A DNA stretch of 62,719 nucleotides from a virus (IMGVR_UViG_3300024187_000009:1-62719); one strand, 5' to 3'. Counted from the stretch's first letter, positions 5,866 through 55,532 are shown. A program made the numbers and translations. Notes: generated by a model not told the origin, from the sequence alone.

Positions 5866-6363
5866 ATGGCAAGCCTAGTCAAGCCTAGTTACGGAAGTAA
5901 GACGAACCTGACGATTACGCTGGCCTCGCTATCTGCAAGCGCCACAGTGGGCCGACAGGCGACCGTAGTAGACAACACGGCTGATCTGGCGCTCGACGTT
6001 TTAGTGCAGGGACAGATTGAAACTGGTACGGTAAGTGGAAATAAGCAGGTTCTTCTTTACGTGGCTGGATCGGTGGATGGGGGAACTACCTACTCAGGAG
6101 ACAACGGCGCGAACACTATCGGAGCGACAGACGCAGGGTTCACGCGGGCAGATCCAACTGGTCTAAATTTAATCGGAGTGCTCCCGTGTCCGACAAGTTC
6201 TGTGATTATGGCGTTCGGGCCGTATTCGGTGGCACAGGCATTCGGCGGGAACATGCCAGATCACTGGACTCTGGTTGTGTTTAACGATACCGGAGCAGCC
6301 TTCTCTGCGACGGGGGCAAACAATGCCGCATGGTATAAGCCTCTACAGGCGACCATAGTTTAG
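5866..6363 (+). CDS. Putative virion beta-sandwich/decoration protein
   Basis: 165 aa, Thr/Ala/Gly-rich jelly-roll-like pattern. Confidence 0.55.
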   Translation: MASLVKPSYGSKTNLTITLASLSASATVGRQATVVDNTADLALDVLVQGQIETGTVSGNKQVLLYVAGSVDGGTTYSGDNGANTIGATDAGFTRADPTGLNLIGVLPCPTSSVIMAFGPYSVAQAFGGNMPDHWTLVVFNDTGAAFSATGANNAAWYKPLQATIV

Positions 6364-6367
6364 CCCA

Positions 6368-7174
6368 ATGAGTATCATCGCTGGGCCTAAAATATGGACC
6401 AGGAAGCCCATATCCGGTAGTCAGATCAATCGAAGCCACCCCTTATCGCAGGGGATCATATCAGCCTTTCTGTTCAACGAGGGCGGATCTGCCTGTTTTG
6501 ATCTGGCCGACACGCAGGTAGCGACTACGGGCGCAGGAGCCCTGCAATGGCAGGAATCCGCCAACTTTGATGGGGCGACTTACGTCCAGCGCGGAAACCC
6601 TCCATTCTTGAGCAGTGCGGTTATAAACTTTAGCGTAACCCTAAGGATAAAATGTACATCCTCATCGCGGATGGGGATAGTCACTAACTTCGACCCAAGT
6701 TTTAACGGATTTGCTGTGGGCATGGCCGCTACAACTCCGGCAGGGCAGATAGATGCCTACTTCGCTGGATGGTACGGAGGGGCTGGTGGAACCTCCATTG
6801 CCGTTAACGATGGCAAATGGCACATTATCACCTTTACGTGTGCTGTTGGATCTCCGAATGTTGAGAAGCTATATGTTGACGGGGTATTTATAGGGTCCGT
6901 GGCCTTAGGCCCGTTCAATGGCGTTACGACCCCTTTGCAAATAGGCAAAGAGGAAACCTTTTTCTTCAGCGGACAGATCGATTTTGTGGTTTTGCATAGC
7001 CGTACATTGACATCTTCGGATGTTCTCCAGTTCCATACCTACCCGTACAGTTTCATGCAGCCGCAGTCTCCACGTCCCAGGTATTGGCTTTCGGCTAACG
7101 TAGCGCCTCCCGATACAACTGTAGATATGCCGCCCGTGGTGGTGTACTATCCTGATTTCATGATGACTACCTAA
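6368..7174 (+). CDS. LamG/ConA-like lectin domain protein
   Basis: VNDGKWHIITFT...KLYVDGV...LQIG...FSGQIDFVVLHSRTLT, the Laminin_G_3 signature. Confidence 0.85.
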   Translation: MSIIAGPKIWTRKPISGSQINRSHPLSQGIISAFLFNEGGSACFDLADTQVATTGAGALQWQESANFDGATYVQRGNPPFLSSAVINFSVTLRIKCTSSSRMGIVTNFDPSFNGFAVGMAATTPAGQIDAYFAGWYGGAGGTSIAVNDGKWHIITFTCAVGSPNVEKLYVDGVFIGSVALGPFNGVTTPLQIGKEETFFFSGQIDFVVLHSRTLTSSDVLQFHTYPYSFMQPQSPRPRYWLSANVAPPDTTVDMPPVVVYYPDFMMTT

Positions 7175-37768: not shown

Positions 37769-38358
37769 TAGGTGAAGGTGACGCAAGCGATATCGCGTAT
37801 CACATGCCGTTCCTGGAGGAATGGGCATCGCGCTCTGGGATCATCGTAGAGATCGGCGTAGGAACCGGCACAGGATCAACGCGGGCGTTTACGCGGGGCC
37901 TGCTGCGTTCTACGGTGCCCTACGATAAGGTCCACTTGCTGGTCGATATCGACCCTGAGCGCCCCCATGAGAAACCAGCGCATGAATGGTGGAAGAAGAT
38001 AGACGGCGGCTCAGAAGACCCACGTACGGCAGCGATGGTGGATGAGATTATTCCTGGTCGCACTCCCGACATCATCTTTATCGACACGATCCACAGTCAT
38101 GAGCACATGAGCATGGAGATGCCGATTTGGTCGCGTCTCGCCAGTCCCCGTACGCTGTGGGCGTTTCATGATACCTGGATCTGGGGCGTGTACAACAGGA
38201 TGACAGACGCCATAAAAGAGTGGACAGAATTACATACAGGATGGGAGTATCTAGATCATTCCAGACATGCCCATGGTCTAGGGATATTACGACATAGGGA
38301 GGGTCCATGGATGGACATAGAGCCCCGCGTTGAAGACTGGCCCACTCCGCAAGTTTGA
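37765..38358 (+). CDS. Class I SAM methyltransferase (Methyltransf_24-like O-methyltransferase)
   Basis: VEIGVGTGTGST; DIIFIDTIHS; FHDT. Confidence 0.85.
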   Translation: MIGEGDASDIAYHMPFLEEWASRSGIIVEIGVGTGTGSTRAFTRGLLRSTVPYDKVHLLVDIDPERPHEKPAHEWWKKIDGGSEDPRTAAMVDEIIPGRTPDIIFIDTIHSHEHMSMEMPIWSRLASPRTLWAFHDTWIWGVYNRMTDAIKEWTELHTGWEYLDHSRHAHGLGILRHREGPWMDIEPRVEDWPTPQV

Positions 38359-38363
38359 ATCCC

Positions 38364-38867
38364 ATGCGAGAAATCTCAATTTCTGCTGGTAGGGTTGCCT
38401 TAGTTGACGATGAAGATTACGACTTAGTTAGTGGCTATAAGTGGATCTGGGTATGGTCTAACAAGAAAGATGGAGGCGGATACGCTAGAACGTGGCTGAA
38501 ACTAGGGAGGATCGGAAACAAAAGAGGCGTTAGGAGAAAACGAACCTGCGTGTCCATGCATGAACTTATCGGCAAAGAAAAAGGGCTTGATCATGCTGAC
38601 GGGGACGGCCTAAACAACCAGAAGTACAATCTAAGGAAGGCCACAAGGTCACAGCAAAACATCAATCGTTCCGCCCCGGTCGGAAAAGCCTCCATCCATA
38701 AAGGCGTGACCAGATGGAAGCATCTTTGGAGAGCAAGGATTGTCTTGAACTATAAGCACATCCTGATCGGCTACTTCAAGGATGAAGTGGATGCGGCCAC
38801 TGCCTATAACTTTAAAGCATATGAACTGTTCGGAGAGTTCGCGCGTATGAATACGCCGCAGGTATGA
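38364..38867 (+). CDS. HNH-AP2 homing endonuclease
   Basis: ALVDDEDY; DHADGDGLNNQKYNLR; KGV..W.ARI...IGYFKDEVDAATAYN....FGEFA. Confidence 0.9.
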   Translation: MREISISAGRVALVDDEDYDLVSGYKWIWVWSNKKDGGGYARTWLKLGRIGNKRGVRRKRTCVSMHELIGKEKGLDHADGDGLNNQKYNLRKATRSQQNINRSAPVGKASIHKGVTRWKHLWRARIVLNYKHILIGYFKDEVDAATAYNFKAYELFGEFARMNTPQV

Positions 38868-49371: not shown

Positions 49372-50574
49372 TTACGCCTGCCCCTTTCGTTGGTCTACCA
49401 GTTCCTTCAACTCTGCGAGCAGCGCCGCCCATGCGTCACCAGAAAGGTTCAGCGCATCCTGGAGGCTTTCTGCGCCATGCACGCCCAAACAGTCCGAGAA
49501 TGCGCGTTGTCCGATCACCTCAGCAGCATGCGCTAGAACATCCATATTCTCTTTCTCCTGCTTGAGGCGGTTACGCTCTGCGCCTAGAACTCGCCAGATA
49601 GAGATTGCGTGCTCTTTGGTCTGTATTTCATTGCAGTGCTCGTAACCTTTAGCTTTGAGCGTGGACTTGTAGATTTCATCCGTCCCCGTATAGGAGCGGA
49701 TATCGTCCTTCATCTGCTTCCACTCCTTCAACTTAGAAAGAGAGATGATGCCGTGCGCGCCCGACTTGCCCGCCTTGGCCTGCTGATCGCGCTGCGCCTC
49801 GTCCAGGATTGCCTGCGCCTCTTTATCCTTAGCTGACTGGCGAATCTCGATAGAACGCGCCGTTTCTCTCAACGTCGGCATATCCTCGCGCGGAATCGCT
49901 TCGCGTATTTGCGGCGGTTCATCGAGCATCTTAGCGCCTTCGATGATTAGGGCCTGAATGCTCGGGGATGCGTTGCGCACGTCGCGGGACTCCGCTGCCG
50001 CTCGCTCTGCGGAGGGATTAACTCGCTGCCCCGGAGCGTAAGGCTCAAGCCCCTTCTCTGCGAGGTATGCTTTCTGCGCTTCCTTGCTGCCCTGTTCGCC
50101 CACCTCCTCCTCAGTGACAACGCCGTTGATAGCGAAGCTGCGCTTAAGCGCTAGCACTTCGGCAACCTTAGCGATCATGGCGGAGGGATACTGCTGCCAC
50201 ACCTGAGAGGCTTTCTTATATTCGGAGTAGTAAGCCTCACAGATGACTGGATGCCCGCGATCCTTGCGCCATACCGAGCATACAGCCTTGATGGGGATGT
50301 TCTTATCGTCGCGCTCTACCCGCGTTTCCATGCCATCGAACTGCGGGTGATCGTTGGCCTTGCGTAGGTATCCGTCACGGGAGGCCATCACGCCGATCTG
50401 CGGAGCGTAGTAAATCTCCTTCAGGAAGGGGTTAAGTCCCGTGGCTTTACACACCTCAATGAACATGCGGAACTGCGCTTCGGTTGCGCCCTTGCAGACG
50501 GTCTGCTTGATCGTCTCAAGCATCTGCGGGTCTTGGTACTGCGGTACTACCGTCAATGCGTTACTGCTCATCAT
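49372..50574 (-). CDS. bet: Bet/RecT-family single-strand annealing recombinase with long C-terminal extension
   Basis: IKQTVCKGATEAQFRMF...GLNPFLKEIY; SRDGY..KANDHPQFDGM; WQQYPSAMIAKVAE..ALKRSF. Confidence 0.88.
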   Translation of the reverse strand: MMSSNALTVVPQYQDPQMLETIKQTVCKGATEAQFRMFIEVCKATGLNPFLKEIYYAPQIGVMASRDGYLRKANDHPQFDGMETRVERDDKNIPIKAVCSVWRKDRGHPVICEAYYSEYKKASQVWQQYPSAMIAKVAEVLALKRSFAINGVVTEEEVGEQGSKEAQKAYLAEKGLEPYAPGQRVNPSAERAAAESRDVRNASPSIQALIIEGAKMLDEPPQIREAIPREDMPTLRETARSIEIRQSAKDKEAQAILDEAQRDQQAKAGKSGAHGIISLSKLKEWKQMKDDIRSYTGTDEIYKSTLKAKGYEHCNEIQTKEHAISIWRVLGAERNRLKQEKENMDVLAHAAEVIGQRAFSDCLGVHGAESLQDALNLSGDAWAALLAELKELVDQRKGQA

Positions 50575-50710
50575 CCCCTCCTCGAAGAATGGGCGTGCCC
50601 AATGGCAGAAGAGCACGCCCCTGTTCGTCCGTCACGGAATCCACGTATAGCACCAGTTCCAGCAGATCGAGCGCGCCTAGCGTCTCGGCGTACAGGGCGT
50701 CCTCGGTCAT
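50561..50710 (-). CDS. Small acidic hypothetical protein (49 aa)
   Basis: GGAGGG RBS; MTEDALYAETL...GGDDEQ*. Confidence 0.45.
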   Translation of the reverse strand: MTEDALYAETLGALDLLELVLYVDSVTDEQGRALLPLGTPILRGGDDEQ

Positions 50711-50711
50711 G

Positions 50712-50918
50712 CTATCCCTCCACGCTCAGATCGTAGGCCATGTCACTCATCCAATCTGAGTAATCTTCGGCGTCTGCCTCCGCTTCATCCAAGCAGCGGT
50801 TGCAGATGCGTTCCTGATCTCGGTAACCAGTCTGCGGGTCAGCTTCGCCGTAATAGCGAAGCTCGTAGCCGCAGGAAGTAGGGCCACCGCATTTATCGCA
50901 AGAGGGTGTTTGTTCCAT
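50712..50918 (-). CDS. Small zinc-finger protein, likely leaderless
   Basis: CDKC...CNRC; ATG 5 nt after a -10 box. Confidence 0.55.
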   Translation of the reverse strand: MEQTPSCDKCGGPTSCGYELRYYGEADPQTGYRDQERICNRCLDEAEADAEDYSDWMSDMAYDLSVEG

Positions 50919-50923
50919 GCCCA

Positions 50924-50974
50924 AGGATAGCACGAATAAAAACATTTGCAATAGTTTTCTTCCTGTGCTAGGAT
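50924..50974. promoter_or_regulatory. Divergent promoters sharing one palindromic -35 (TTGCAA 50946-50951)
   Basis: Plus strand TTGCAA-N17-TAGGAT; minus strand TTGCAA-N16-TATCCT; both have TGc extensions. Confidence 0.6.
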
Positions 50975-50981
50975 CTATTAC

Positions 50982-51125
50982 ATGGAAAAGATCAAGCCGG
51001 TTACAACGCGGCTACCTGTATCGGTCCTGAAGCGCCTAAAGGCTGCGGCTCAGGAAAGCGGCCTTAAACTCGAAGCGGTGATGAAGCAGGCGGCGGAGCT
51101 TTGGCTGAAAGAGAACAACGCATGA
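50982..51125 (+). CDS. Ribbon-helix-helix (Arc/CopG-like) regulator, 47 aa
   Basis: MEKIKPVTTRLPVSVLKRLKAAAQESGLKLEAVMKQAAELWL; not in the ORF track. Confidence 0.75.
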   Translation: MEKIKPVTTRLPVSVLKRLKAAAQESGLKLEAVMKQAAELWLKENNA

Positions 51126-51249
51126 AGGCATTTCCTGTAGATCACCTTCTGCCCAACAGCCGCTGCCAGTCACTGAAGCTGCTGCTGACGCCGCAGCCGC
51201 CTAAGCTGCCGTGGTGGCCGAGAATGCTGGGATGGCTGGAGCGTGCGCT

Positions 51250-51615
51250 ATGGCTGTAAGTTTCGTAATCCCCGGGGCGCCGCGCACCAAGAAGAATCAT
51301 GGGCGCAGGATTATGCGGGGCAAGCGAATCTTCAACGTGCCAAGCGAAGCCTATACAGCGTGGAACAAGCTCGCGGTATGGGCGCTGAGGCGGGCTAATC
51401 CTCCGGTGATAGCCTACCCCGTAAACTGCCGTGCGCTGTTCTTCAGGGAAGCGCTGACTGGGGACGCTGTAGGGTACTACCAGGCCTTGGCCGACACGCT
51501 GGAGAACGCCGGGGTGCTTACAAACGATAAGCTAATCGTGTCCTGGGATGGATCGCGCATGCTCAAGGATGCCGATAACCCCCGTATCATCGTAACGCTG
51601 GAGCCAGCCGCATGA
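51250..51615 (+). CDS. RusA-like Holliday junction resolvase
   Basis: FVIPGAPRTKKN; D....QALADTLENAGVLTNDK; NPRIIV. Confidence 0.8.
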   Translation: MAVSFVIPGAPRTKKNHGRRIMRGKRIFNVPSEAYTAWNKLAVWALRRANPPVIAYPVNCRALFFREALTGDAVGYYQALADTLENAGVLTNDKLIVSWDGSRMLKDADNPRIIVTLEPAA

Positions 51616-51677
51616 TCGTACTATGCCGCATTTGCCAGATACGGCGCGTTTATGGGCGTTTCCGGGACTGCCTATGA
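51612..51677 (+). pseudogene. Truncated 5' remnant of gene 52156..52344 (21 aa)
   Basis: MIVLCRICQIRRVYGRFRDCL* vs MTVLCKLCQIRRVYGRFEICL, 16/21 identical. Confidence 0.8.
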
Positions 51678-52159
51678 AAGAAATACAGCTTACGCAGGGG
51701 TTAGTGGCACTGGTGGATGATGAGGATTTCGAGCGCGTAAACGCATTCAAGTGGCACGCATTTTCTAGGAACCACTGGGTAACATACGCCGCTAGGAACC
51801 TCCCGAGGGATGGATCTAAGAGGCAGCGCATTTTTATGCACACGTTCATCACTGGAGTTCGTGGTGCGGACCACAGGGACAATAATGGCTTAAACAACCA
51901 GAAGTCTAACTTGAGGCCGGCTACGGGAACACAGAACAACGCTAACGCAAGGAAGCGGAAAGGTGCTAGTTCCAGGTTTCGAGGGGTTTCATGGAAGTCA
52001 TCCGAATCAAAATGGTGGGCTCAGATTCAGAAGCATGGAAAGGCGGAAAGCCTGGGACTATTTGCTGACGAGGTGGACGCCGCCACAGCCTATAATCTAC
52101 GCGTCCATGAACTGTTCGGGGAGTTTGCCAAATTCAACACTCCGGAGATGGGAGCATGA
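51674..52159 (+). CDS. HNH-AP2 homing endonuclease
   Basis: MKEIQLTQG..ALVDDEDF; DHRDNNGLNNQKSNLR; FRGVSW...LGLFADEVDAATAYN. Confidence 0.9.
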   Translation: MKEIQLTQGLVALVDDEDFERVNAFKWHAFSRNHWVTYAARNLPRDGSKRQRIFMHTFITGVRGADHRDNNGLNNQKSNLRPATGTQNNANARKRKGASSRFRGVSWKSSESKWWAQIQKHGKAESLGLFADEVDAATAYNLRVHELFGEFAKFNTPEMGA

Positions 52160-52344
52160 CCGTATTGTGCAAGCTGTGCCAGATTCGCAGAGTCTACGGA
52201 CGCTTTGAAATATGCCTGTCTTGCAGAATGGAGGAGCGATGGCAGGACAACCAGGAGCGCCGTAGGCGCAAGGAAGTGGTAATCCGCAGACTGGGCCCGA
52301 GGGAGGTTGAAGTGGCTCTAAATTGGGAGCGTAAGCCGGCATGA
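52156..52344 (+). CDS. Small zinc-finger protein
   Basis: CKLC...CLSC; coupled on both sides. Confidence 0.6.
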   Translation: MTVLCKLCQIRRVYGRFEICLSCRMEERWQDNQERRRRKEVVIRRLGPREVEVALNWERKPA

Positions 52345-52664
52345 AATACCAGGCGCATAGTGAAACATCGCGGGAAGCTGCCGAGCGCGCTGAGCCACAA
52401 GCCGGTACGCAGAGGCGCAAGATACTGGATTATATGAAGTTAGTGCGCTGCGCAACCGACGAGATGCAGCAGGAGGCGCTTCAGATGAATCCGAGCACCC
52501 AGAGACCGCGGCGCGGGGAACTGGTAGATAGCGGGCATCTTAGGGATTCGGGACGTAAGGCGCTGACTAGGAGCGGCCGACGGGCAGTGCTGTGGGAGAT
52601 TTGCAATCCGAAGTATGCACAACAAACTTTTTTGCCGGATGCGGCTAGTATTTTCGTGAAGTGA
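52341..52664 (+). CDS. Winged-helix DNA-binding protein
   Basis: TSREAA...ATDE.....L.MNPSTQRPRRGELV..G...DSG....TRSGR.A..W. Confidence 0.75.
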   Translation: MKYQAHSETSREAAERAEPQAGTQRRKILDYMKLVRCATDEMQQEALQMNPSTQRPRRGELVDSGHLRDSGRKALTRSGRRAVLWEICNPKYAQQTFLPDAASIFVK

Positions 52665-52665
52665 T

Positions 52666-53197
52666 GAACTGGCGCGGCGGTGATCGCGTACCGAGTCCCG
52701 AGGTGGAGAGCCTGGGGGCGGCAACTGGTGAGACACGGTGATTGAAACAGTATCATGCAGCGGATGCCAACGATGCCCGGTAGGACTATCGTTCCGCCAG
52801 TTTTTGTGTTATGATGAAAGGGTACGAAACATGTTTGGGGGAGCGGTGCCGCAAACACCCTCCCCAGCCTTTGCGGGGCAGTATGTTAATCACCGCGCCT
52901 GTAGGCGCTTCCCAGAACCCTCCAAGAGCTTCTATGTTCGTGCCCTGTGCCGTGAGGTGCAGCGGTTTACGACGGCCCTGCTCGCGTAATTGCATCCCCG
53001 CCACGTAATAAACGGCGGGATAGCCGCCTAGTGGTGTGAACCGTAAGAGGGGATGAGGGTTCCTGGATGATCGTTAGGACCGGCGTCTTTCGAGACGCTA
53101 CACCTGGATCTGGGAGAAAAGAGCTAAGGCGACGGGCTCAGTGGCTCCGCTGGAAAGACCTGAGAAAGTATCACGTGAAAAGCGTGGTACTCAGGTC
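52666..53197 (+). ncRNA. Candidate structured non-coding RNA / regulatory leader
   Basis: No convincing long ORF; many nested stems with G-U-compatible mismatches (see findings). Confidence 0.5.
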
Positions 53198-53236
53198 CTA
53201 TGCTCGAAGCTAGTTCACCACTGGAAAGAGGGGAGC

Positions 53237-53509
53237 ATGACGAAAGATCAACAAACCACAGCGACAGTACTAGCAAAGCAACTTGCGGAACATATAGCCG
53301 AGTGCGACATCGATCAGTACAGAGTTTTGATGGCATCGCGCAAAGGTAACAAAAGATCAGTGGTCTTAGTGGCCCTGAGCGATACCGCAGTGGATCGGTT
53401 ACTGGATTGGATCGACAGCCAAAAGGAAAGTGGCCGGATGGTAGACCAAATTCTTCAGCCCACATTTAGCGATTCTCCACGCCCAAAACCGTATGGGGAT
53501 CTAGGGTGA
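53237..53509 (+). CDS. Hypothetical protein
   Basis: GAGGGGAG RBS before ATG 53237. Confidence 0.45.
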   Translation: MTKDQQTTATVLAKQLAEHIAECDIDQYRVLMASRKGNKRSVVLVALSDTAVDRLLDWIDSQKESGRMVDQILQPTFSDSPRPKPYGDLG

Positions 53510-53530
53510 GATTGAAAAGAAAGGAGTTAA

Positions 53531-53758
53531 ATGCAAGCTGAAAGTTCTGATGAACGCTTCATGAACGCGATCAAGCAAGCGATTACCGAAGCTACCGAGG
53601 CTGCTGTTTCTGAATGTATTGCCGATGCTCAGAATAAAATCGCCGCGAAGTTGAGCGAAATTACGGCGGGTGTGGCGCTGCGAGTGATGCAGCAGGTCAG
53701 CATGGAAAGAATGGGGCCGGATCTGCATATCATAGTGAAACTAGAGGGGTTAAAATGA
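53531..53758 (+). CDS. Hypothetical helical protein
   Basis: AAAGGAG RBS. Confidence 0.6.
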   Translation: MQAESSDERFMNAIKQAITEATEAAVSECIADAQNKIAAKLSEITAGVALRVMQQVSMERMGPDLHIIVKLEGLK

Positions 53759-53790
53759 CCCACTGCCCGCATTGTGGTAAATCGCTATGA
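53755..53790 (+). pseudogene. Truncated 5' remnant of the replication gene (11 aa)
   Basis: MTHCPHCGKSL* vs MKKCPHCGQLI of 54266..54763. Confidence 0.7.
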
Positions 53791-54269
53791 GGACAATCAA
53801 CATCTCAAGAGGTTTTGTAGTTCTAGTAGATGACGCCGATTTTGAGAGAGTCAACGCTTTCAAGTGGAAGTCGATGATCTCAAAAAGAAAGACTCGGCCT
53901 GACGTTGTTTATGCCTGCCGCAACCATCGCAATAAGTGTATCTATATGCATCGGTTCATCTTGGGATGTTCTAGGAACATTGATCACAAGGACGGAGACG
54001 GGCTCAATAATCAACGCGAAAACCTGCGCGAGTGCACGCAATCTCAGAATGGCGCTAACAAGCGCAAGTATCGCGGATCGTCGAAGTATAAGGGCGTATC
54101 CTGGCACGCTGGCGGAAAGAAGTGGCAAGTGCACATTAAGACGCCGGAGGCCAATATGTACCTGGGCCTGTTTGCCGATGAAGCCGATGCCGCAACTGCG
54201 TATAACTTCGCAGCCCTTGAGCACTTTGGCGAGTTCGCGGTATTCAATTACCGGGAGGCGTCCCGATGA
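53787..54269 (+). CDS. HNH-AP2 homing endonuclease
   Basis: LVDDADF; MHRFIL; IDHKDGDGLNNQRENLR; YKGVSW; AATAYN...FGEFA. Confidence 0.9.
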   Translation: MRTINISRGFVVLVDDADFERVNAFKWKSMISKRKTRPDVVYACRNHRNKCIYMHRFILGCSRNIDHKDGDGLNNQRENLRECTQSQNGANKRKYRGSSKYKGVSWHAGGKKWQVHIKTPEANMYLGLFADEADAATAYNFAALEHFGEFAVFNYREASR

Positions 54270-54763
54270 AGAAGTGTCCTCATTGCGGGCAACTAATCGA
54301 GGAGACAACCGCGCCAGAGAATGAGGTGATGCGCTGGTTTAATGAATGGTGGGCTCTTTACCCGCGCCATGTAGGGAAGGCCGCGGCGCTCAAAGCATGG
54401 AAGAAGGCAGCGACTAGCGAGGCGATCAAGGATGAGATAATCGCGGCGCTCAAATGCCAGCTTGCGGGGATGATGAGACAGGATAATTCGTTCATTCCAC
54501 ACGCTTCTACGTGGTTGAATGGGCGGCGCTTTGAGGATGAGTGTCCAGCGTCCAGCGAACGTCCAGCGAACGTCCAGCGAAAAATCGCCTGCGAACTATG
54601 CGGGGATACGGGAATTATGCCGGTGGTTAATCCATCGATCATAGATGCGGATTCGCCAGATCCTTCCGCATTGCTGGGCTATGCGCGCTGCTCCTGCGCT
54701 CGCGGGCAACTGCCTGGGCTTGTGATACCCCAGGCGGAAGCGGACGATCCTGCGCCGTTCTAG
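54266..54763 (+). CDS. Replication initiator/replisome organiser-like protein
   Basis: FNEWWALYPRHVGKAAALKAWKK...FIPHASTWLNGRRFEDE, then CELCGDTG...RCSC. Confidence 0.75.
   Translation: MKKCPHCGQLIEETTAPENEVMRWFNEWWALYPRHVGKAAALKAWKKAATSEAIKDEIIAALKCQLAGMMRQDNSFIPHASTWLNGRRFEDECPASSERPANVQRKIACELCGDTGIMPVVNPSIIDADSPDPSALLGYARCSCARGQLPGLVIPQAEADDPAPF
54543..54581 (+). repeat. 11-bp tandem repeat (GTCCAGCGAAC x ~3.5)
   Basis: Units at 54550, 54561, 54572 plus a partial unit at 54543. Confidence 0.9.
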
Positions 54764-55334
54764 CGCCTGCCGTGGCGGATATTCCAGCGATCGAGGTACA
54801 GGCTGATGAGGCGCCACTGGTGGAGGGACTTAGCGCGCCTGATGCGGGCTCGCCTGGCTTGCTTCATGTGATTCGCGCCGGCGTTGCTCATGGCTACATC
54901 CACCAGCGGCGATGCCGCTTCATGTGCTTCGCGTTGAACTGGAAGGCCCAGGCAAGGGTGCTGACGGTGAGGGAGCAGAGGCCAGCGCGGAGGAACAACT
55001 CACCAACATCAGTCAGGGTCATATTCGCGGTACTCCAGTTGTAGATCAAACTCAAAAGGCTGTACGGGCATCTCCAAATCGAATTGCTGGATGAAATCAT
55101 CCACCGTTTGGGTTGGTACACAGCGCGCGTCCCATTGTGGCATTCCTGCTTCTATAGTGGGCCGCGACGATTCCACTTCGACGCTCTCGATTCCGGGGAT
55201 GCGCAGGAGCGCTAACGCGATTGGACAAGCGCCGGCATCATCGCGCACGCCGTTGGCGATATCCTCAGGAGTGACCATTACGTGATACTTGCCGGGAATC
55301 AACATATCATCAATCTCCTCTATGGTTTGTATTG

Positions 55335-55532
55335 CTATTGTTCCGATGCGCACTTGTGCCCGCGCTTTTCTGCCCGTGCCGCTGTCATCTTCCCGCATTC
55401 GCAACGGGGCGCAGGTTGCCGTTTCCTGGGCTTACCGCGCGCTGCAAGGCCACCGAGTGAGCCGACTGCGGCTAGATCGCCCTTAGCGGCACGCAAGCGG
55501 CCCAGGGCTACTGCTGCTTCGTTTTTGCTCAT
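55335..55532 (-). CDS. Small basic protein (KNEAAVALGR motif) with C-terminal Cys/His
   Basis: GAGGG RBS; MSKNEAAVALGRL...CECG...HKC. Confidence 0.55.
   Translation of the reverse strand: MSKNEAAVALGRLRAAKGDLAAVGSLGGLAARGKPRKRQPAPRCECGKMTAARAEKRGHKCASEQ

Follow-up and report, generated by a model that had tools for sequence, protein, structure and literature searches.

Free-standing HNH-AP2 genes inside the 5' parts of two soil phage genes, each followed by a diverged replacement 5' end

We found two free-standing HNH-AP2 elements in the genome of a soil phage, each lying inside the 5' part of a protein-coding gene and each carrying a diverged replacement for the 5' end of that gene. The insertion and replacement structure, the identity of the resident copy, the boundaries of the first site, the coexistence of alleles with and without the element and the recurrence of the arrangement were all observed, while the functions of the nucleases are inferred. 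We put the probability of this reading at roughly 0.7. The window, by which we mean the whole stretch of DNA that was analysed (62,719 nt), is a complete 62.7-kb IMG/VR virus record of soil metagenome origin with a G+C content of 55.8%. All of the features described here lie on the plus strand.

The first site and its resident copy

At the first site a RusA-like Holliday junction resolvase gene (51250–51615; phrog_140, E = 2.2e-6), given here as context only and scoring under the cut-off against Pfam RusA (17.3 bits), is followed by a mini-ORF of 21 codons and a stop (51612–51677), which we call stub 1 and which translates as MIVLCRICQIRRVYGRFRDCL. Next comes the putative HNH-AP2 homing endonuclease gene 1 (161 aa, 51674–52159; phrog_99, E = 1.4e-28) and then an intact gene for a 62-aa zinc-ribbon-like protein with a CxxC...CxxC motif (52156–52344), which begins MTVLCKLCQIRRVYGRFEICL. 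Every junction from the RusA-like gene through the stub, the HNH gene and the 62-aa gene to the 107-aa gene (p107) that starts at 52341 is an ATGA overlap. The ATG of the stub overlaps the stop of the RusA-like gene at 51612–51615, its TGA (51675–51677) overlaps the ATG of HNH gene 1 (51674–51676), and the TGA of HNH gene 1 (52157–52159) overlaps the ATG of the 62-aa gene (52156). A preliminary description of this DNA, made from the sequence alone, had reported the overlaps at the start and the stop of the stub, and the coordinates agree with it. Stub 1 retains the 62-aa gene's own Shine-Dalgarno (SD) sequence and ATG, with GGAG 12 nt upstream.

Stub 1 and the start of the 62-aa gene are identical at 16 of 21 residues and at 40 of 66 nt. 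All eight codons of the shared IRRVYGRF differ synonymously, as had been described along with the protein match, and 10 of the 16 shared residues are encoded by different codons. The local alignment of stub and gene scored 97, compared with a maximum of 51 in 30 shuffles. When the N-terminus of each ORF in the genome was compared with the 1.5 kb upstream of that ORF (391 ORFs), this pair scored 91 and the runner-up scored 52. A tblastn search within the genome also recovered the pair, at E = 1.7e-7. We conclude that the duplication of the 5' end of the 62-aa gene is well above chance.

The duplicated copies also differ in the protein that they encode, with amino-acid changes at 5 of the 21 duplicated codons and, over the full diverged block, at 8 of 29. 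Of 15 codons for shared residues, 5 are identical, compared with 5.96 expected from independent draws on the codon usage of the genome. Since this is the level of independent draws, the apparent synonymous recoding requires no special process. A difference at all eight IRRVYGRF codons has a probability of about 0.03 under the same codon-usage null, and these eight codons were chosen post hoc. There was no sign of selection for recoding, the synonymous divergence being what neutral saturation predicts. Purely synonymous recoding, and recoding beyond saturation, are ruled out by the amino-acid changes and by the neutral level of codon identity. Thus, the earlier proposal of a synonymously recoded replacement N-terminus survives as to a foreign replacement, but not as to its being purely synonymous. 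Judged by its codons, the replacement block is a distant allele, saturated and partly non-synonymous, and it looks like a natural allele in origin.

The question of which copy is resident had been left to alignment with relatives that lack the HNH gene. We aligned five of these, namely the loci L003 (IMG/VR), L060 and L061 (JGI metagenomes) and the proteins P0002 and P0003. Tandem copies in such relatives would have refuted the proposed insertion; all five carry a single uninterrupted gene with a stub-type N-terminus (MIVLCRICQ...). We found that stub 1 is identical to L060 at 61 of 63 nt and to L003 at 19 of 21 aa. The first 87 nt of the 62-aa gene match L060 at 56 of 87 positions (31 of 87 different, pS 0.80) and nt 88–186 match it at 89 of 99, with a sharp switch from foreign to resident at codon 29/30. 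Near-identity of the stub to L060, together with divergence of the gene over nt 1–87 alone, identifies the stub as the resident 5' end. The working 62-aa gene is a chimera, in which a foreign 5' block (52156–52242; 29 codons, 87 nt) precedes a resident 3' part. All four cysteines of the CxxC...CxxC motif are preserved in the foreign block. The genes upstream of the target vary, being RusA-like here and others in L003 and L060, and homology between the window and its relatives begins only 11 nt before stub 1.

A donor of the foreign allele was not found in IMG/VR, JGI metagenome contigs, GTDB genomes or GenBank phages. In a set of 5.8 billion proteins the foreign allele was present in this phage and in one near-identical contig only. 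A blastn search of GenBank phages with 51000–52800 gave no match, and a search of GTDB genome contigs with the 62-aa alignment as query found none. The RusA-like protein identified 15 loci in IMG/VR, none of which had the 62-aa gene downstream. No second genomic background with the same element was found.

We then compared 51300–54500 with Logan contigs of four public soil runs (X1–X4), of which X1 is possibly the source sample. HNH-containing contigs with zero differences span 51300–52535 in X1, 51632–52443 in X2 and 51607–52206 in X3. Because such contigs cross both the stub/HNH and the HNH/gene junctions, the structure is not an assembly chimera. HNH-free contigs were also recovered, with joints from 51673 to 52243 in X1 and X2 and from 51674 to 52243 in X2, and with 24–25 resident-type letters between the joint ends. 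These alleles run from the end of the stub exactly to codon 30 of the intact gene. The joints fix element 1 as 51675–52242, a 568-nt unit made up of the nuclease ORF and the 87-nt block, which replaces 24 nt of the resident gene. The 24 replaced letters occur nowhere in the window, so the HNH-free form is not a simple deletion product. Alleles with and without the HNH gene co-occur in the same soil samples. Downstream, the HNH-free contigs of X1 and X2 differ from the window at 30 of 293 letters (about 10%), which indicates that they come from related phages and not from the same strain minus the element.

HNH gene 1 is read in a different frame from the stub and has its own stop, and a search of 50500–55500 against Rfam (E ≤ 1) matched no intron family; splicing is thus not involved, and an endonuclease encoded by a group I intron or an intein was rejected on these two grounds. 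The invasion of an uninterrupted gene without splicing, as first described, is upheld by the HNH-free contig alleles and relatives that bridge the site. A transposon-type target-site duplication was rejected as well, since the repeats measure 63 nt with 62% identity at site 1 and 33 nt with 58% at site 2, with one copy near relatives and the other saturated.

The second site and the predicted nucleases

The same layout of a stub, an HNH-AP2 gene and a gene with a diverged start is present at a second site. Stub 2 (53755–53790; 11 codons and a stop, MTHCPHCGKSL) is the resident 5' end of a replication-initiator-like gene. It is followed by the putative HNH-AP2 homing endonuclease gene 2 (160 aa, 53787–54269; Pfam HNH_3, E = 5e-7; phrog_99, E = 2.8e-34) and by the intact replication-initiator-like gene (165 aa, 54266–54763; phrog_270, E = 2.5e-21), which starts MKKCPHCGQLI and whose first ~30 codons are diverged. 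At both ends of stub 2 there is an ATGA overlap, of its ATG with the stop of the 75-aa ORF before it and of its TGA with the ATG of HNH gene 2. Compared with the start of the L003 homologue, stub 2 is identical at 31 of 33 nt and the intact 165-aa gene at 18 of 33. Stub 2 also matches the N-termini of three database proteins (P0007, P0009 and P0015) at 11 of 11 aa. The 165-aa protein is diverged from its closest relative, P0005, over aa 1–30 and is nearly identical to it from aa 31 to 92. Since the N-terminal region is variable across the 165-aa family and only proteins could be compared, the right boundary of element 2 is no more than suggested.

A scan of translated flanks flagged site 2 alongside site 1, and an X2 contig bridges the site 2 junction. 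HNH genes 1 and 2 are 50% identical. In L003, site 2 lacks HNH gene 2 and has an unrelated HNH. The soil runs contained no skip joint that would represent an HNH-free form of site 2, with some bins uncovered in X3 and X4.

The window encodes a third HNH-AP2 gene (167 aa, 38364–38867; phrog_99, E = 1.7e-25), which has no stub. The phrog_99 family, annotated as HNH endonuclease, matches all three genes with E values of 1e-25 to 1e-34, and a D-H...N...N-L-R motif is invariant in 9 of 9 aligned sequences, the three window genes included. HNH gene 1 did not reach the 0.01 threshold against Pfam HNH_3, Pfam HNH (PF01844) had no match across the genome, and a match to I-HmuI (1u3e) was weak (E = 0.53). 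Pfam AP2 scores were 17.6–18 bits, compared with a curated cut-off of 33.3. A phmmer search of PDB matched residues 85–156 of HNH gene 2 to the AP2 domains of plant WRI1 (7wq5, E = 3.3e-10) and TEM1 (7et4, E = 1.1e-5). On this evidence from sequence the predicted nucleases fit the free-standing HNH-AP2 (HNN-AP2) homing endonucleases in motif, in AP2 domain and in presence or absence at a locus; that they cleave DNA is inferred.

None of the three HNH starts has an SD core (GGAG, GAGG, AGGA or AAGG) within 20 nt upstream, compared with 8 of the 9 other starts tested; a core is present at the two stubs and at the two rebuilt genes. The start codon of T4 mobE likewise overlaps an upstream stop, and translational coupling to the upstream gene has been proposed there, in the parts of the source available to us (PMC2988022). 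A role for the stub as translational coupler of the nuclease is inferred and only indirectly supported, without expression data.

Several smaller features were seen around the HNH genes. Neither HNH gene 3 nor the HNH carried by L003 itself has a flanking duplication above shuffles. HNH gene 3 has a possible 15-nt tail duplication, its last four codons repeating those of the upstream gene (TPQV and stop). The C-terminal tails of the HNH ORFs may conceivably be recoded copies of the tails of the genes upstream (TPEMGA compared with TLEPAA, TPQV with TPQV), but part of the resemblance is accounted for by SD constraints, and the tails of HNH genes 1 and 3 share NTP[EQ] with each other. A search of IMG/VR with the 196-aa gene that follows HNH gene 3 found none. 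CTAG is a conceivable target of both nucleases, since both stubs end in CTA and L003 and L060 read CTAG at this position, but L061 reads CTGG, and one co-occurring HNH-free allele has CTC at the stub end and no CTAG. In the genome as a whole CTAG occurs 153 times, compared with 238 expected.

Recurrence in other phages and alternative explanations

Among IMG/VR relatives of HNH gene 1, a flanking translated duplication was present in 0 of 38 loci (about 28 distinct). We extended the translated-flank scan to a wider sample, in which 80–83 loci were given and 78–81 tested, one duplicate and one edge case being dropped; the 80 scanned IMG/VR loci were drawn from at least 542 encoding relatives among the 593 pattern matches listed. 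Three of 78 loci were flagged: L124 (z 10.6), L119 (z 9.0) and L110 (z 3.4). In L124 a 24-codon stub has an ATGA overlap with the HNH gene, and the rebuilt portal-like gene begins within the HNH tail. In L110 the stub, 16 codons from an ATPase gene, continues in frame as part of the HNH ORF, which has lost its own start. L119 is a 3'-end version, with the C-terminal copy on the upstream gene and the orphan copy after the HNH gene. The duplicate pairs in these three loci are 61–71% identical in nucleotides.

When 80 relatives of the portal-like gene of L124 were compared, an HNH gene was likewise present at that position in L166 and L175/L173. Their HNH proteins are 60–63% identical to that of L124, and on inspection each has a 5' stub, which is coupled to the HNH gene by ATGA in L166 and is in frame with it in L175. 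Thus, the search for translated duplications beside HNH-AP2 genes that the preliminary description had suggested yielded further cases, in the flagged loci and in the portal-gene relatives. One locus on the same contig as L173, L127, was missed by the automatic scan; the sensitivity of the scan is therefore limited, and a few per cent is a minimum for the frequency. Most members of the HNH-AP2 family showed no flanking duplication. The L110 ATPase matched nothing but itself in IMG/VR, and searches of GenBank phages with L110, L124 and L119 gave distant matches or none.

The arrangement could also be the neutral debris of a one-off illegitimate repair, with the stub an unselected leftover, the block a co-conversion tract, and neither a composite unit nor coupling. 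The rarity of flanking duplications in the family and the absence of the same element from any second genomic background are in keeping with this explanation, as are the neutral saturation of the synonymous divergence and the differences between relatives in the upstream genes, which mean that homology on the left would often be missing. However, two independent sites in one genome share the precise ATGA/ATGA architecture and no HNH gene has its own SD. Moreover, stubs of the same portal-like gene are retained in three phages with HNH proteins that share no more than 60–63% identity, one of these stubs being fused in frame to the HNH as in L110. Stubs kept in compact phage genomes are hard to square with unselected debris, and we consider debris an unlikely source of the arrangement, though not a negligible one.

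A second alternative is that the duplication is ancestral, as a tandem partial paralogue or a leader ORF, and that the HNH-free forms arose by deletion. Direct repeats are able to mediate deletion, and the stub is an open ORF with an SD before it. Deletion between the copies would leave foreign-type letters past the crossover, but the HNH-free alleles instead hold 24–25 nt, the resident-type codons 22–29, that are absent from the window, and in the five relatives and three contig alleles the gene is of resident type from end to end. We regard an ancestral duplication as very improbable. An assembly artefact, in which two co-occurring strain variants were joined around an HNH gene, is scarcely tenable even though the record is metagenome-derived and HNH-free alleles co-occur in the same samples, because independent contigs from three runs bridge both site 1 junctions with 0 differences, a second contig of 62,727 nt has identical 62-aa and 165-aa proteins, and ATGA overlaps with intact ORFs at four junctions are unlike the product of a chimera.

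Proposed mechanism and relation to known systems

The reading that we prefer is that of homing elements which bring a replacement for the gene end that they displace. Each consists of the nuclease ORF together with a foreign, diverged copy of the ribosome-binding region and first ~29 codons of the gene that it invades. The foreign copy joins the resident remainder in frame and so leaves the invaded gene whole, without an intron or an intein. Upstream, the SD, the ATG and the first 21 or 11 codons of the resident gene are left as a stub, closed by the TGA inside the ATGA of the nuclease. Our inference is that the cut made by the nuclease in an uninterrupted allele falls at, or close to, either the end of the stub or the 24 nt that were replaced. 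Repair of the break might then copy the element from an HNH-containing genome, with the stub side and the sequence from codon 30 onward as homology arms. The diverged block is predicted to make the carrier immune to cleavage. At ~60% nucleotide identity, block and stub would also be a poor substrate for a recombination that would delete the element. The nuclease, having no SD of its own, may owe a low level of translation to ribosomes that terminate on the stub and reinitiate, in effect hijacking the original start. The block itself may stem from the 5' end of a distant allele that had the nuclease as its neighbour, then still lying between two genes.

Homing endonuclease genes (HEGs) of group I introns and inteins interrupt coding sequence, and RNA or protein splicing preserves the function of the gene. 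In the window, by contrast, function is preserved by replacement of the gene end at the level of DNA.

The closest known parallel that we found is the mobile-ORF (mORF) gene hybrid of fungal mitochondria, in mirror image, so the principle is already known. In the parts of the source available to us, such hybrids are described for atp6 of Allomyces macrogynus and for atp6, atp9, cox2 and nad3 of Glomus, where an inserted endonuclease ORF came with a foreign copy of the C-terminal end, leaving the native one orphaned downstream (PMC3630166). As far as those parts go, mORF hybrids and the window alike have an endonuclease ORF in a protein gene, a foreign end copy in phase and a native orphan. The orphan is 91–98% identical in nucleotides to relatives in the mORF hybrids and 97% in the window stub, and the two copies are 63.5% identical in nucleotides and 91% in amino acids in Glomus atp6, compared with 62% and 76% in the window (PMC3630166). 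The window does not have this C-terminal polarity: it is the 5' end of the gene that occurs twice, with the orphan upstream, and among the phages only L119 is of the 3' type. Since the 5' end is the part duplicated, the window element must supply a ribosome-binding site and a start codon, the original pair staying with the orphan. The window stub, unlike the mORF orphan, is positioned to drive translation of the nuclease. The mORF enzymes are of the LAGLIDADG or GIY-YIG type in an organelle genome, whereas the window enzyme is HNH-AP2 in a phage with ATGA-coupled junctions. Compared with the mORF hybrids, what is new is the phage 5'-end form with an HNH-AP2 gene.

The seg and mob genes of T4 are free-standing HEGs that home without an intron and co-convert their flanks, according to the portion of the source at hand (PMC2988022). 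Within that limit, the T4 genes resemble the window elements in being free-standing, present or absent between related phages, carried with flanks and, in mobE, joined by a start/stop overlap, and in both cases the carrier allele is presumably different at the target. T4-type HEGs lie between genes or split a gene, as do mobE in Aeh1 nrdA and mobA in gene 39/60 (PMC2988022). The window gene differs in being left in one piece without any splicing: a substitute takes the place of the end that was displaced, which stays behind as a non-functional stub.

HNN/HNH-AP2 proteins are known from the Xanthomonas oryzae (Xoo) phages Xp10, OP1 and Xop411 (PMC2248197) and, as IPA-HNH, from ICP1 (PMC10448857). 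From what these sources offered in part, they share with the window an N-terminal HNH/HNN and a C-terminal AP2 domain and several copies per genome, and the copies lie at variable positions, often beside or within essential genes, as in the window. For the Xoo-phage HNN-AP2 genes the flanks were reported to contain "no conserved sequences" and transfer was concluded to be sequence-independent (PMC2248197). The available text of PMC2248197 and PMC10448857 does not mention duplicated, diverged ends of neighbouring genes. Our literature search, which left supplements aside and had sources only in part, found no description of a phage HEG accompanied by a second, diverged copy of a gene end.

It is possible, although we hold this only tentatively and at slightly less than even odds, that phages contain an overlooked class of self-repairing homing cassettes in which a nuclease gene stays permanently coupled to a diverged substitute for one end of the gene that it targets, the functions again being inferred. 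If so, such cassettes would be able to invade ORFs, including essential ones (portal, replication-initiator and ATPase genes), without an intron or an intein. The orphaned 5' stub would be co-opted as the translation initiation region of the nuclease, and the divergence of the block would be doubly useful, as immunity to cleavage and as a guard against repeat-mediated loss. Every homing event would swap the N-terminal allele of the target protein, giving mosaic gene starts. Independently of such a class, the arrangement in the window is a third route, besides introns and inteins, for a putative homing endonuclease to reside within phage coding sequence, and it explains short orphan ORFs before HNH genes and abrupt allele switches at gene starts, both of which nucleotide repeat finders and annotation pipelines overlook. 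Defined substrates for measuring the specificity of the largely uncharacterised HNH-AP2 enzymes are provided by the uninterrupted allele, the stub junction and the rebuilt block, and the coexisting HNH-containing and HNH-free soil alleles offer a natural system in which to follow homing in environmental phages. The link between phages and mitochondrial mORFs suggests that end-replacement may have evolved convergently as a general strategy among homing elements that lack introns.

The layout in other phage loci

Two further IMG/VR phage loci carry an HNH-AP2 gene together with a duplicated, diverged gene end. One of them, L119, has a 3'-end version of the layout (1445-2050), in which an upstream gene, the HNH gene and an orphan copy follow one another. 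The C-terminal end of the upstream gene (...ILKTAQEISEAYIKFIGEI, then a stop) overlaps the HNH start by ATGA, and the orphan copy, IIKTAEEISEAYKAFISEI and a stop, comes after the HNH gene. The gene end and the orphan copy share 40 of 60 nt and 15 of 20 amino acids. In the other locus, L110, the HNH-AP2 ORF (1450-1986) lacks its own start. Its reading begins in the first 16 codons of the adjoining ATPase gene, which form a stub fused to it in frame, and the start of the rebuilt ATPase gene overlaps the HNH stop in ATGACTGA.

Sequence at the junctions

We found that both stubs, the leftover 5' ends of the resident genes upstream of the HNH-AP2 genes, end in CTA followed by the TGA of the nuclease gene (51672-51677 at the 62-aa gene, site 1; 53785-53790 at the replication-initiator-like gene, site 2). 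At the corresponding point the uninterrupted alleles read CTAG in the related loci L003 (IMG/VR) and L060 (JGI metagenome) for site 1 and in L003 for site 2. No CTAG was present at that point in L061, another JGI metagenome locus, or in one co-occurring allele. CTAG is rarer than expected in the window genome, with 153 observed versus 238 expected.

At the third HNH-AP2 gene (38364-38867) the last four codons and stop of a 197-aa gene, TPQV and stop (38344-38358), are repeated at the HNH-AP2 gene end (38853-38867). The copies are identical at 12 of 15 nt and mismatched at third positions only. This repeat could represent a junction duplication of minimal size, or it may be coincidence because the HNH-AP2 gene at site 1 (51674-52159) also ends NTPE...

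Exchange around the two sites

The RusA-like gene (51260-51601) is a replaceable module. Both L003 and L060 are syntenic with the window on either side of it and have different genes in its place, and homology to the window restarts just 11 nt upstream of the site 1 stub ATG.

Different homing endonucleases seem to have a hotspot at the start of the replication-initiator-like gene. Directly before it, with an ATGA overlap, L003 carries a classical HNH gene of 184 aa (5951-6505) that is unrelated to the HNH-AP2 gene of the window (53787-54269) and occupies the same position. A stub was looked for at this L003 site and none was found.

A non-coding block of ~150 nt (52667-52818), which separates the 107-aa gene from the module that follows, is about 95% identical to L003 5384-5534, with flanks far less conserved. 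Its predicted fold is a long closing helix and then a U run (MFE -59.2, z -2.58), and an Rfam search gave no match for the block. The block could encode a structured RNA or act as a regulatory element.

Separately, in the public soil sequencing run X2, one contig with a depth of 2.8 lacks 242 nt (window 53234-53477) inside a 122-aa ORF (53141-53509); it may come from a deletion variant or from a related phage.

Overlapping starts and stops

In the whole window we counted 29 ATGA start/stop overlaps on the + strand and 13 on the - strand, requiring 50 or more open codons on both sides. Translational coupling seems to be usual for this phage, a setting that suits elements with ATGA at start and end.
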